28,695 nucleotides of DNA from NCBI GenBank assembly GCA_037137395.1, contig JBAXKK010000026.1, positions 1-28,695 on the forward strand, in the 5' to 3' direction. A program made the position numbers and the translations under genes. The stretch's first letter is position 1. Each line of letters opens with the position of its first letter. This stretch comes from Elusimicrobiota bacterium. Lineage in GTDB: Bacteria > Elusimicrobiota > Elusimicrobia > Elusimicrobiales > UBA9959. This document shows, in pieces, positions 25,181 to 28,695 of this stretch. The notes beneath the pieces were generated by a model. It had not been told where the DNA came from and did not search any database. It saw only the letters and a program-made list of their open reading frames with translations.

Positions 25181-26593
25181 TTATTTTTCCTCGAACGAAT
25201 CCACCGTGTAGACATATAGCGCGGTGGATTTTTCTTTCCAGGCGGCGGCCGGGAGCCCGGCCTTCTCAAGACAAAGCGAACTAAGAAATTTTTCTTTGGA
25301 ATTGAAGTGTTCCCAGACCTGCGGCAGGTAGGTTCCGCCTGAGCGCCCCTTCTGAACATAAACCCCGTGCTTACCCTCCACGATCTCCTCCCAGCCGGCC
25401 ACTCTACGAAGCGGCGACAGGACTGAGATCTCTATTTTTACCGCGGCCAGTTCTTCCGACGAGAGCGGGCCAAAGCGCGGATCATCAAAAGCGGCGGACA
25501 CGGCAAAGGCCGCGACCGCGTCCGACAAAAGCTGATGCGGCGTCATCGTCCCGATGCAGCCGCGCAACTCCCCGTCCTTATTCAGCGTCACAAAAACCGC
25601 GGCAGGCTGGTTCAGCTCCGGGGAGGAATTCAAAGGGAGCGGCGGGGACTTTTTATTTTTAAGCCGGTTTTCAATGCTCTTGCGGGCCAGGGCCAGCAGC
25701 TCCTTCTTTTGCTCCTTATTTAGAACGCGCGGTTCAATATCTCCGCCGCTCAGGAACAAACCCGCGCCATAACCAACCACCTTGCCGTCTTCGCCCGAGA
25801 TCTTACCGGAATGCGTATATCTGACGAGTTTAAAATCTTCGGCTCCCAGTTCCACGGCCGCCGCGGCGCCGATAACCATGGCGGCGTAACCGCAGGCAGC
25901 CGTATCCATGCAATATTTTGATTTTTCCAGAAGCAGGTCGTGGGCAAGAGCAAAATACCTCATATCCCTATTCCTGATCGCTGTACTGAACGCCTCAAGG
26001 AGGGCCAGATCCGATTTTTCGGCGACATCGCCGGGGGGGTAATGCGAAAGATCCGAGGAAACGCAAATCACGGCCTTTCTACCCTTGATCGTCTCACCGA
26101 GAATCTTACCTATCTCTTCAAGGATATTTAGGTCCGAAGTATTGGCCACGACCGGCACGAACTTAAAAGGTTTGCCGAGCTCCTGTAGGAAAGGGAGTTC
26201 CACTTCCACGGAATGTTCCCCGGAGTGCGCGGAGGGCCGGTCCTCAAAGAGCTTAGAGGCCGACAGCAAAGCCCGGGCAAGCACGGAGTCTATCCCGACC
26301 CGGCCCAGCGGGGTCTCAAAGACGCCCTCTGACATTATTGCCGCGCCGTCCACGGCCTCGGTATGCCCGGTGCCCACTATCACCATGGTGTCAAAGTCAA
26401 CTTCTTTAAGAAAAGAAAAAACGGAACCTGCCGTAGCGCCGGAATAGGCGTAGCCGGCGTGCGGCGCCAGAACGCCCAGCACGCGTCCAGTTAAAGGCCG
26501 CACGGGCTTAAGATAGGACGCCACTTCCCGGCGGAGCTTAGCCGCATCCGCTTCATAAAATTGCCCGGCGACAACCGGTTTTCGTATGATCAT
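25181..26593 (-). CDS. amrB: AmmeMemoRadiSam system protein B (MEMO1) fused to protein A (AMMECR1)
   Basis: RKPVVAGQFY, APHAGYAYSG, EHSVEVELPFLQ, SSDLSHY (MEMO); AVFVTL..GELRGCIG, DPRF, EISVLS, TYLPQV (AMMECR1). Confidence 0.92.
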   Translation of the reverse strand: MIIRKPVVAGQFYEADAAKLRREVASYLKPVRPLTGRVLGVLAPHAGYAYSGATAGSVFSFLKEVDFDTMVIVGTGHTEAVDGAAIMSEGVFETPLGRVGIDSVLARALLSASKLFEDRPSAHSGEHSVEVELPFLQELGKPFKFVPVVANTSDLNILEEIGKILGETIKGRKAVICVSSDLSHYPPGDVAEKSDLALLEAFSTAIRNRDMRYFALAHDLLLEKSKYCMDTAACGYAAMVIGAAAAVELGAEDFKLVRYTHSGKISGEDGKVVGYGAGLFLSGGDIEPRVLNKEQKKELLALARKSIENRLKNKKSPPLPLNSSPELNQPAAVFVTLNKDGELRGCIGTMTPHQLLSDAVAAFAVSAAFDDPRFGPLSSEELAAVKIEISVLSPLRRVAGWEEIVEGKHGVYVQKGRSGGTYLPQVWEHFNSKEKFLSSLCLEKAGLPAAAWKEKSTALYVYTVDSFEEK

Positions 26594-26717: not shown

Positions 26718-26746
26718 TTGCCATTGAACTTATAAAATTTTAGAAT
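26718..26746 (+). promoter_or_regulatory. Sigma70-type promoter for tRNA-His
   Basis: TTGCCA-17 nt-TAGAAT. Confidence 0.65.
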
Positions 26747-26812: not shown

Positions 26813-26889
26813 GGTGGTTGTAGCTCAGTGGTTAGAGCGCTCGGCTGTGGCCCGAGAGGTCGGGGGTTCAAGTCCCCTCAGCCACCCCA
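26813..26889 (+). tRNA. tRNA-His(GUG)
   Basis: G-1 plus GTGGTTG acceptor, CTCGG-CT-GTG-GC-CCGAG anticodon arm, GGGGG-TTCAAGT-CCCCT T-arm, discriminator C and encoded CCA. Confidence 0.97.
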
Positions 26890-28368
26890 AATTTCAGTTT
26901 TCCGGATTTTCCCCGAGGCGGCCGCCGCCGCAGAATTAAATTTCCGCAGTTTTTCCCACGGAGATTTAAGTTTATAAGAAATCCGCTTCCCGCCTAAAAT
27001 AAAGTTCGAACCGATATTTTTCCATATTTGCAGGTTTTCCGCCGGATCGCCGGAAATCGCGGACTCTCCGGCGAGAACTGCGGTCCTGTAGAAACCTGTA
27101 AGCGGTTCGAACCGCAAATCACCCTGCCGCGCAAAAGCTGCGAGATTCATTTCATTTTCCATTTTCTTCTCAACGAATGAACGCTTCTTAAGAGCATACT
27201 CGTCCTGCGTAAGCTGCCCCGCCAGCAACATGTCGAGTATCGCGTTCATTCGTTGATTAAGGATATCTATTTCATCTCGCAGATTTTGGGCGGCCTCTTC
27301 CCCGGCCTGGGCCGCCTTAATTGATACCTTTTTTATGTTATCAAGAGCTTCGGCGGCCAGGGCCGGGGGTAAGGAAACTCCTTGTAACTCGGCGCGTAGC
27401 TGGGCGTCAATCACCTCTTCCCGCACAAAGGCCTGATCGCAGTTAACGTTGCGCTTGGTGCAGTGAAGATAGTTGTGGCCTTTTTGCGTTTCCGTGGTAA
27501 CAAAGCGCCCGCAACCCGCGCAGCGGAAAGCGCCCCGGTAGACATAAGGCTTTAAACCTTTAGTATGCGGCTTGCTTTTGTTCTTCATGACCTCCTGGCA
27601 CTTGTCGTAGAGGGCTTTGGAGATAAGAGGCTTATGCTTGCCCTCGTAGAACTCGCCTAGGTACTTGATGGCCCCATAGAAGAACGGATTTACAAGCAGC
27701 CGTTGGTAGTTGGATGTGGCTAACTCCTTGTTGCGCCGCTTATTTAGCCCCTCGGCGTTCATTATGCGGCGCAACTCCCTAAGCGGATACTTGCCGGTAG
27801 CGTAAAGTTCAAAGGTACGCCGTACAAGCGGCGCCATTTCCTGGTCTACGACAATGGTGTGGTTCTTGGTGTCATTAAGATAGCCGAGCGGGGCCAGGGT
27901 GGGGAGAATGCCGTTGCGAAGCTTCTGTCGCAGGCCCCGCTTTACGTTCTCTGAAAGGTTATCGACGAAATACTTGGACTGCCCGAAAGCGATAGACAGC
28001 ATGAACTTACCCTGCGGTGTGCGGTCGAACCAGAAGGTGGGGAATTTCAGCTCCAGGACCTTCCCAAGGTCTACGAGATAGATTATCCTGCCGCCGTCCA
28101 CACTGTTACGCGCCAGCCTGTCGGGGTGCCAAGCCACAATGCCCTGGGCTGCGCCCTGCTCCAGGCCCGCTACCATCTCGTTAAAGACCTCGCGGCCCGG
28201 CTCCTTGGCGGTTTTGCTTTCGAGGAACTCCCTCACTATGGTAAGCCCTTCCTTGCGCGCGTATTCGCGCAACTCGGCGAGCTGCGCCTCTATGGACAGG
28301 ATCTGCCGGTCAGGCTCGTCCGTGGACTTGCGAGCATAAAGGAAATACCGCATATTAGGTTTCTGCAT
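26878..28368 (-). CDS. Large serine recombinase (resolvase catalytic domain, recombinase domain, zinc ribbon, coiled coil)
   Basis: YFLYARKSTD..RQ..SI..Q catalytic Ser motif, DRLARN, APLGY, NPFFYG, H.PLIS, CAGCG...YLHC...C zinc ribbon. GGAGG SD. The stop codon lies inside tRNA-His. Confidence 0.95.
   Translation of the reverse strand: MQKPNMRYFLYARKSTDEPDRQILSIEAQLAELREYARKEGLTIVREFLESKTAKEPGREVFNEMVAGLEQGAAQGIVAWHPDRLARNSVDGGRIIYLVDLGKVLELKFPTFWFDRTPQGKFMLSIAFGQSKYFVDNLSENVKRGLRQKLRNGILPTLAPLGYLNDTKNHTIVVDQEMAPLVRRTFELYATGKYPLRELRRIMNAEGLNKRRNKELATSNYQRLLVNPFFYGAIKYLGEFYEGKHKPLISKALYDKCQEVMKNKSKPHTKGLKPYVYRGAFRCAGCGRFVTTETQKGHNYLHCTKRNVNCDQAFVREEVIDAQLRAELQGVSLPPALAAEALDNIKKVSIKAAQAGEEAAQNLRDEIDILNQRMNAILDMLLAGQLTQDEYALKKRSFVEKKMENEMNLAAFARQGDLRFEPLTGFYRTAVLAGESAISGDPAENLQIWKNIGSNFILGGKRISYKLKSPWEKLRKFNSAAAAASGKIRKTEIWGG
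26883..26994 (+). repeat. 112-bp perfect inverted repeat, left copy
   Basis: Exact reverse complement of 28534-28645 by base-by-base comparison; includes the last 7 nt of tRNA-His (CACCCCA). Confidence 0.95.
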
Positions 28369-28383
28369 ACCTTCCTCCCCGCT

Positions 28384-28425
28384 CTTAAGGCCGGTTTTGC
28401 CCAGCAGGGCTAAACCGGACTTAAG
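28384..28425. promoter_or_regulatory. Imperfect inverted repeat just upstream of the recombinase RBS
   Basis: CTTAAG-G-CCGGTTT-T-GCCC-AGCA-GGGC-T-AAACCGG-A-CTTAAG. Confidence 0.55.
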
Positions 28426-28512
28426 TGCTGTTCTTCAACTCTGCGCCGTTGGTGCGGACGGCCAGGCGCAGCAGCGCTGGGCCGGCAGCACCGGCGGCCA
28501 TAAGGACAATAA

Positions 28513-28695
28513 TTCGGTTCGTAATTTATCATTGGCGGGAAGCGGATTTCTTATAAACTTAAATCTCCGTGGGAAAAACTGCGGAAATTTAATTCTGCGG
28601 CGGCGGCCGCCTCGGGGAAAATCCGGAAAACTGAAATTTGGGGTGCCTTCCAGGCCGAATTGCGAACCTACTTCGCCCAACACCCAGAGGAAACG
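28513..28695 (+). pseudogene. Silent second copy of the recombinase 3' end (contains right repeat copy 28534-28645) with an alternative C-terminus
   Basis: Reads FGS*FIIGGKRISYKLKSPWEKLRKFNSAAAAASGKIRKTEIWGAFQAELRTYFAQHPEET to the window end. In-frame TAA at 28510 and 28522; no start codon. Confidence 0.8.

Follow-up and report, generated by a model that had tools for sequence, protein, structure and literature searches.

Why would an integrated element keep, beside the gene for its own integrase, a mirrored copy of that gene's 3′ end? The question is raised by a 28,695-nt stretch of DNA from an Elusimicrobiota bacterium (the window), in which a large serine recombinase (LSR) gene next to a tRNA-His gene is bracketed by two inverted repeat arms, one of them formed by the end of the gene itself. 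We find that this structure is conserved in a widespread family of elements, that the gene end holds the attachment site attP, and that integration exchanges the C-terminus of the enzyme; a switch between short and long enzyme forms by inversion of the recombinase cassette is, on balance, our preferred answer.

A mirrored gene end at tRNA-His

The window is the entire contig C26 of a 174-contig, 2.70-Mb bin (98.9% complete, 7.7% contaminated). The recombinase gene (26878–28368, minus strand) encodes a 496-residue protein, referred to here as the clipped form, that ends with KTEIWGG and a stop codon in the antisense strand of the integration target, tRNA-His(gtg) (26814–26889, plus strand; ARAGORN). 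A repeat finder placed two inverted arms around the gene at 26880–27014 and 28514–28648 (135 nt, 96% complementary, spacing of 1499 nt), and the offsets of the mismatches delimit an exact 112-nt core at 26883–26994 and 28534–28645. The left arm, P (minus strand), consists of the last ~45 codons of the gene, and the exact repeat overlaps the last 7 nt of tRNA-His, which come from the element. The right arm, P* (plus strand), is a spare inverted copy of the gene 3′ end that lies upstream of the start codon by 165 nt when measured from the exact core or by 145 nt when measured from the extended arm. Its inner 20 nt have diverged and contain a TAA stop codon at 28522–28524, and the arm translates as GS-stop-FIIGGKRISY…KTEIWGAFQAELRTYFAQHPEET up to the end of the window.

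These coordinates agree throughout with the initial annotation, which had reported a 112-bp exact inverted repeat, its overlap with tRNA-His, its coincidence with the recombinase 3′ end and the position of the right copy. The geometry given there is also correct: a flip of 1763 bp would keep the tRNA intact, produce the long form of the enzyme and make the gene co-directional with the tRNA promoter. The repeat itself is genuine and no product of misassembly, and a chance origin is excluded, given that 18 of 30 related loci contain the same arm pair.

Two inverted attP regions

The last 55 nt of C26 are found again inside contig C44 of the same bin, as a k-mer-sized overlap. Alignment of three junctions, namely tRNA/arm and arm/flank on C26 and flank/terminator side on C44, revealed that attL, attP2 and attR share a common crossover core, CACCC, located at 26883–26887 in attL (plus strand) and, as GGGTG, at 28641–28645 in attP2, the intact spare site (plus strand). 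Junction triads in three relatives have the cores CACCCCAAA, CCCCGCCAAATTTT and CCCG, and at base level the triads both here and in these relatives have the form expected of attP × attB recombination, with attL and attR around the element. The triad thus implies that the element integrated into tRNA-His through an attP inside the recombinase gene. Judging from these alignments, the stretch is the integrase module of a genomic island inserted by the LSR into the 3′ end of tRNA-His, with attP situated within the 3′ end of the recombinase gene. The crossover core lies 3 codons ahead of the stop codon of the clipped form, and the native form goes on for 18 more residues.

An attP region of ~500 bp (P-core-P′) is present twice, the two copies being inverted relative to each other. 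P comprises ~135 bp of gene end, and P′, on the other side of the core, begins with 20 native-tail codons and continues as a non-coding module. Integration split the gene-internal copy into attL (tRNA/P, 26883) and attR (P′/tRNA terminator, on C44), and the second copy (attP2, or P*-core-P′), which lies 145 bp upstream of the gene, is intact. In the resulting layout the recombinase gene lies between the P and P* arms and the cargo between the P′ arms, with the second, inverted P′ copy at attR spanning C44:20369–20549. On the reverse complement of C44, the CACCC core is followed by a GC-rich hairpin and a run of seven T residues, which looks like the tRNA-His terminator. The coexistence of an attL-like junction and an intact, inverted attP-like gene end, as originally proposed, is borne out by the junction triad; the proposal missed the larger duplicated attP region and left out the cargo island with its attR, which is situated on C44. 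In the Logan contigs of sequencing run X1, the 112-nt core forms a separate unitig at the exact repeat coordinates, the attL bridge was recovered, and a loose end at 28641 marks the attR junction. No loose end corresponding to an empty attB at 26889 was seen in the Logan contigs, which drop rare variants and are uninformative on excision.

Whole islands of 10–24 kb were recovered in three relatives (G057, G033 and G038), where the P′ repeats are 293–364 bp long, 81–97% identical and 10–23 kb apart, and where the inverted copy adjoins attR. The cargo of the relatives' islands includes XhoI-type and Eco57I-type restriction-modification enzymes, Mrr, ThsB-like TIR proteins, an OLD-TOPRIM ATPase with a UvrD helicase, two-component regulators and Xre-type helix-turn-helix proteins, the genes for the last of which adjoin P′. 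No replication, conjugation or phage structural genes were identified among the island open reading frames (ORFs) scanned, which comprised 14 from G033, of which 13 fall within the island, and 15 from G057, where the scan covered the initial ~12.6 kb of a 24-kb island.

The non-coding module of P′ is GC-rich, measures ~290 nt and follows the native-tail stop (window 28646–28695, continuing at C44:20374–20549). It is strongly conserved across elements with different tRNA targets (L017:827–1166, minus strand; L019:3329–3668, plus strand; L021, L022 and L025), is duplicated along with P′, and may act as a binding site, as an origin or as an RNA. P′ was rejected as a gene on the basis of 10 sequences that have no conserved frame and contain stop codons in all three forward frames. 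A structured RNA was unsupported in an alignment of 8 sequences, in which the RNAalifold covariation term was unfavourable (+4.88) and 5 of 50 pairs were compensatory, and an Rfam search returned tRNAs only, besides one far-below-threshold match to a microRNA family on the C22 locus. In this genome P′ is interrupted 72 nt past the stop codon of the tail by a multi-copy repeat, probably an insertion sequence. The repeat at C44:20496–20549 comprises 53–54 nt common to the ends of four contigs (C44, C43, C71 and C80), with ~78% identity in five more, and probably represents one end of that insertion sequence, the body of which is missing from the bin. The genome also contains a second, degenerate island of the same family (C22:29400–31960; L004 3400–5961), which consists, in order, of a native-type tail (LRSLRMKVRHHFASHPEDSL and a stop codon) with a P′-like relic, two cargo genes and a recombinase 3′ fragment (residues 409–464, 54% identical) that runs into the contig end.

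Conservation across a widespread family

Homologs of the recombinase at E ≤ 1e-40 are present in 47 of 80 genomes of the same bacterial family, many of them within a few hundred bases of a contig end. Among the 30 family loci fetched, the window included, 18 contain the arm pair (81–140 nt, 91–100% identity), with one arm at the gene 3′ end and the other 138–192 nt upstream of the start; their integration targets are tRNA-His, tRNA-Asp and tRNA-Glu. The remaining family loci comprise one with a 51-nt pair, one anomalous locus (L018) and 10 without a pair. In most of these 10 the contig ends too near the gene, and one (L033) shows no repeat despite a 1.5-kb flank.

A wider sample of 79 metagenome and 80 genome loci was drawn from Elusimicrobia/Elusimicrobiota, many Patescibacteria lineages and a few other labels, and 91 distinct loci that had the spare arm and at least 89 nt beyond it were classified by what lies beyond the spare arm and beyond the gene end, respectively. 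The canonical combination of native tail and tRNA was found in 58 of the 91, a count that is a lower bound as the filter rejects some native tails with ESNP or ELNP. In 9 further loci a tail failing the filter, several of which look native by eye, is paired with a tRNA. Native tails lie on both sides in 4 loci (double-attP); one locus has tRNA beyond the spare arm and a native tail at the gene end (L153), one has tRNA on both sides (L095), and 18 are cut or unclear. The order of inverted repeat, recombinase, inverted repeat and tRNA, which the initial annotation had proposed to look for in related genomes, therefore recurs in both samples (18/30 and 58/91 loci).

Concerted evolution of the arms

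Over the outer 110 nt, the arms have a median identity of 0.99 within an element and only 0.27 between elements (ungapped). Divided into fifths from outer to inner end, the arms mismatch at rates of 0.037, 0.026, 0.009, 0.020 and 0.144, the mismatches clustering in a small inner patch at recurring offsets of ~112–125 nt. There, the conserved Asn codon of the IGSNF motif is missing from the spare copy, and in the window it has become the stop codon. On this comparison the arms evolve in concert within each element. High identity within elements whose arms are barely alignable with those of other elements indicates that the duplication is ancestral to the family and that the arms have been continually homogenised in each lineage. 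Such continual homogenisation in turn points to physical exchange between the arms, the reciprocal outcome of which would be inversion of the cassette.

The recombinase and its exchangeable C-terminus

The recombinase contains a Resolvase domain (PF00239; residues 9–153, E 3.1e-20), a Recombinase domain (PF07508; E 2.5e-13) and a zinc-ribbon domain (PF13408, Zn_ribbon_recom; E 9e-06, above cut-off). The YxRxS motif is present as YARKSTDE, and Arg13, Ser15, Asp83 and Arg84 as well as the zinc-ribbon cysteines Cys287, Cys290, Cys307 and Cys314 are invariant in 59 aligned sequences. A sequence search of the PDB gave a single weak match (3g13, E 2.4e-05) and a fold search was needed instead, for which an AlphaFold2 model of a natural long form, P0028, was built from a 59-sequence alignment (mean predicted local distance difference test score (pLDDT) 74.9). 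The model matches full-length chains of solved serine integrases of four types (Foldseek E 6e-15 to 2e-10, probability 1.0), with VIA Z values of 15.0–10.0 to 9y66/9dxd, 4kis, 9iu2 and 9tep. It predicts an inserted coiled-coil formed by helices 339–386 and 392–419, which matches the coiled-coil of the LI integrase (5uae_B; Z 9.5, root mean square deviation 1.0, 56 residues aligned).

Integration swaps a conserved 20-residue C-terminal helix (ending in WGAFQAELRTYFAQHPEETL and a stop codon) for a terminus that reads WGG before the stop. The coding sequence of the native tail, WGAFQAELRTYFAQHPEET, occupies 28639–28695 (plus strand) at the start of the P′ arm, and the final Leu and stop codons follow on C44. 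We surveyed tails in the 120 best of 7,627 homologs (53–93% identical; those named are Elusimicrobiota metagenome-assembled genomes). RDSNP-like tails, encoded by the antisense strand of a tRNA T-arm, occur in 79 and WGG endings, from antisense tRNA-His, in 6; the native tail W-[RG]-x-F-x-x-E-x-R-T-Y-F-A-Q-H-P-E-x-x-L is present in 17, and 18 are truncated or of other kinds, which sets 85 tRNA-type tails against 17 native ones. The alternative tail of the window falls in the native class, and the suspected native terminus W..F..ELRTYF matches the native C-terminus of the family, W..F..E.RTYF.

In 16 tail sequences, a small and related sample, the ratio of nonsynonymous to synonymous polymorphism (pN/pS) is 0.40 in the recombinase frame versus 0.68–1.41 in the other five frames. 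For the 40 codons that precede the tail, within the arm, pN/pS between elements is 0.88, which is nearly neutral. The codon statistics point to purifying selection on the tail in the recombinase frame only and indicate that the long form is translated and under selection. The tail is predicted to be helical at residues 496–511 of P0028 (block pLDDT 84–86), and the alignments of P0028 to solved LSRs all stop at residues 469–482, indicating that the tail is an extension past the canonical fold and that the clipped enzyme retains every canonical domain.

The recombinase leader, U (28369–28513, minus strand; 145 nt), folds strongly (minimum free energy −77.4 kcal/mol, z −3.17) and contains a ~42-nt palindrome (28384–28425) directly before the ribosome-binding site. 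A similar palindrome (CTTAAG…CTTAAG) is present in four relatives (G022, G057, G024 and G067:C72), and it could act as an operator or as a translation-blocking hairpin. In a consensus scan, no sigma-70-like site preceded the recombinase gene on the strand that encodes it. The putative tRNA-His promoter is sigma-70-like (TTGCCA-17-TAGAAT; 26718–26746, plus strand), a consensus match only, at 10/12 positions. The neighbouring chromosomal gene (25181–26593, minus strand) encodes a 470-residue protein whose sequence resembles a MEMO-AMMECR1 fusion (AmmeMemoRadiSam-type).

Alternative states in other loci

A few loci depart from the canonical order. In L153, the order is tRNA-Ser(gga), the reverse complement of the spare arm P*, the leader and a recombinase with a native tail, as predicted for a flipped cassette or for integration through attP2. 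The four double-attP loci (L181, L197, L099 and L233) encode native-type tails beyond both arms, as an excised circle would, and G067:C72 and G030:C21 carry the long form. In L095, a 5772-nt metagenome contig, the cassette is flanked by two distinct tRNA-Ser genes in inverted orientation (anticodons gct and tga), with arms of 158 nt at 96.8% identity that include the tRNA 3′ ends; this is the arrangement that would be expected if the spare attP had recombined with a second attB and so inverted a chromosome segment.

Two other observations were not used as evidence. L018 (G055:C39) has tRNA-His on both sides, with 1.36-kb flanks that are 90.8% identical. L099/L100 is one 11,566-nt metagenome contig whose ends are exact inverted copies over 2,071 nt, each end copy holding the whole cassette, with 7.4 kb of unique DNA between them. 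L018 and the ends of L099/L100 could be flipped isomers or assembler walks through collapsed repeats.

Proposed cassette inversion and competing explanations

The reading best supported by these observations is a short/long switch by cassette inversion, a lock-and-release design that we consider probable by a modest degree. Recurrent homologous exchange would keep the arms identical, and its reciprocal product would flip the 1.76-kb cassette and re-attach the native helix to the recombinase. Integration would have moved the tRNA terminator to attR, so that read-through from the tRNA-His promoter would run antisense to the gene as assembled, and the flip would turn the gene from antisense to sense relative to that promoter. 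The clipped, antisense-transcribed form would then be the stable resting state, and a rare flip, or integration via attP2, would yield a full-length form that promotes further recombination. It is possible, though we put this forward only tentatively, that clipping and antisense placement act as a lock on the mobile element, the spare copy restoring the full enzyme and releasing the island, with inversion as the control of directionality or timing. Under such a lock, inversion of the integrase gene might conceivably replace or supplement the separate directionality factor that serine integrases need for excision, in this family of Elusimicrobiota and candidate phyla radiation (CPR) bacteria, an idea that we hold with equally limited confidence.

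Several points weigh against the switch. Gene conversion without crossover could keep the arms identical too, and the promoter and terminator assignments rest on consensus scans only. The clipped enzyme, having all canonical LSR domains, may be fully active, in which case the tail would be no on/off element, and the recombinase ORFs are intact in tRNA-joined loci, so that the clipped form is not simply dead. The flipped state is rare (1 of 91 loci, L153), and because the arms of L153 are only 79% identical, this locus may have originated by attP2 integration instead of a flip. In the Logan contigs, the 112-nt core is collapsed and its flanks are unlinked, giving no read-level support for two orientations, and the core unitig has a depth of 44.6 against 12–15 for the flanks, which is ~3× where 2× is expected; the excess may come from a third copy or from a related strain with the same core.

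A first alternative, which we judge unlikely, treats the spare attP as a static alternative integration site. The circle would carry two equivalent inverted attP sites, use of the gene-internal attP would clip the enzyme and use of the spare would leave it intact, the integrated cassette would have no useful flip rate, and gene conversion or selection for site function would keep the arms identical. The existence of double-attP loci (4/91) and the diverged arms of L153, which fit direct integration via attP2, are consistent with this explanation, as is L095, where the spare arm is joined to a second, different tRNA-Ser, a sign that attP2 can recombine. However, equal use of the two sites predicts that both integrated forms should be common, and the clipped form is ahead by 58 to 1. 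The near-perfect identity of the arms over ~110 nt also extends far past the 40–50 bp given for serine integrase sites in published reports, an excess that argues for homologous exchange between the arms.

The initial annotation had assigned the flip to the recombinase itself, which would catalyse its own inversion between attL and the inverted attP2 at the core as a site-specific short/long phase switch. The two cores are indeed inverted, their P-type half-sites are identical, the recombinase gene alone lies between them, and the products would again be attL and attP, making the reaction reversible. The geometry of that proposal stands but the catalysis is unsupported, as the serine integrases characterised so far do not accept attL × attP; they recombine attP with attB and no other combination of sites (PMC3783163). 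Moreover, an exchange at the core would leave the arms unhomogenised, whereas ~110 nt are homogenised with decay at the edge, and no mixture of orientations is visible in the Logan contigs, where the 112-nt core is collapsed. Self-inversion by the recombinase is therefore the less likely route, and we regard it as improbable.

By comparison with the yeast 2-micron plasmid, inverted attP regions could instead divide the excised circle into a recombinase and a cargo segment such that inversion during replication amplifies its copies, the integrated layout being a by-product. The geometry of the double-attP loci would fit, and the 2,071-bp terminal inverted duplication of L099/L100 spans the whole cassette. 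That contig is, however, equally explained as an assembly walk through collapsed repeats, no closed circle was among the assembled loci, the scanned island ORFs (G033, and G057 half covered) include no replication genes, and we know of no LSR that recombines attP with attP; we consider this explanation very improbable. Finally, the notion that the repeat is a contig-end assembly artefact, raised as a caveat in the initial annotation, or a meaningless relic of an old integrase gene, is refuted: the repeat does touch the contig end, the bin is fragmented and partly contaminated and the right copy contains a stop codon, but the same layout occurs in independent loci of both samples across many assemblies, the junctions are present in the Logan contigs of an independent run, the arms co-evolve within elements, and 50 nt of unique flank after the arm link to attR on C44.

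Comparison with known systems

Like the SPbeta-type, Listeria A118/LI, Bxb1 and phiC31 integrases, the enzyme has catalytic, recombinase and zinc-ribbon domains with an inserted coiled-coil, and, as for phage and island large serine integrases, integration leaves attL and attR with a short common core. It differs from the solved large serine integrases in being only 11–18% identical to them, and from phage and island enzymes in that attP lies inside its own gene, that integration removes a 20-residue helix past the canonical fold, and that the integrated element retains a complete inverted spare attP. In Myxococcus phage Mx8 (intP to intX) and in SSV1, attP reportedly lies in the integrase gene and integration changes or splits its C-terminal coding sequence, so that the free and integrated forms encode different proteins; these integrases are tyrosine recombinases, unlike the enzyme described here, and we know of no inverted spare site in either. 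Inverted repeats that hold recombination sites also enclose a recombinase gene or segment in yeast 2-micron FLP/FRT and in Hin/Gin, which resemble the present locus in having a recombinase bracketed by inverted repeats; as in the 2-micron plasmid, the circle would here consist of two invertible parts. Those enzymes act on identical sites, FLP being a tyrosine recombinase and Hin and Gin serine invertases of ~190 residues with ~26-bp sites. The present enzyme, in contrast, is a 496-residue integrase with LSR domains, its arms measure 112–135 bp, the outer flanks of the two arms differ (tRNA versus P′), and enzyme-driven inversion is only a proposal.

The nearest precedent, likened by description, is the serine integrase gene dsiB of the Dehalococcoides ssrA islands: in the available text of McMurdie et al. 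2011 (PMC3146451), dsiB always overlaps attL at its 3′ end and takes its stop codon from the target or a neighbouring island, and the authors speculate that it is fully functional only on the circular element. The crossover thus falls inside the integrase ORF and integration changes the C-terminus, as in the Mx8 and SSV1 type and as at the locus described here. The same text portrays the DsiB islands, like those here, as carrying cargo and no transfer genes; unlike those here, they target transfer-messenger RNA and have a six-gene integration module with a second small recombinase (PMC3146451). It mentions no inverted spare copy, and the word 'inverted' occurs 0 times in it. In mycobacteriophage BPs and its relatives, attP lies in a gene and integration alters the C-terminus and behaviour of the protein, as described in the part of PMC4557955 available; the affected gene there is the repressor, the integrase is a tyrosine recombinase and no duplicated inverted site is present, unlike here. 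The accessible part of a preprint on tycheposons reports that 27 of 937 elements have large serine recombinases, with no mention of the spare-attP layout. Full-text literature searches turned up no description of a recombinase flanked by an inverted spare attP.

Implications

Elements of this kind break metagenome assemblies at predictable places. The spare site appears able to rearrange chromosomes, as its apparent joining to a second tRNA gene in L095 illustrates. Serine integrases are valued for genome engineering because they are simple and unidirectional, and how natural elements time their excision has, to our knowledge, been worked out in only a few phages. Small defence-gene islands of a very widespread family, in Elusimicrobiota and ultra-small CPR bacteria, keep a mirrored spare attP, and if the two enzyme forms, short and long, do differ in activity or direction, the arrangement would represent a new form of serine integrase control and a compact design for a reversible switch.

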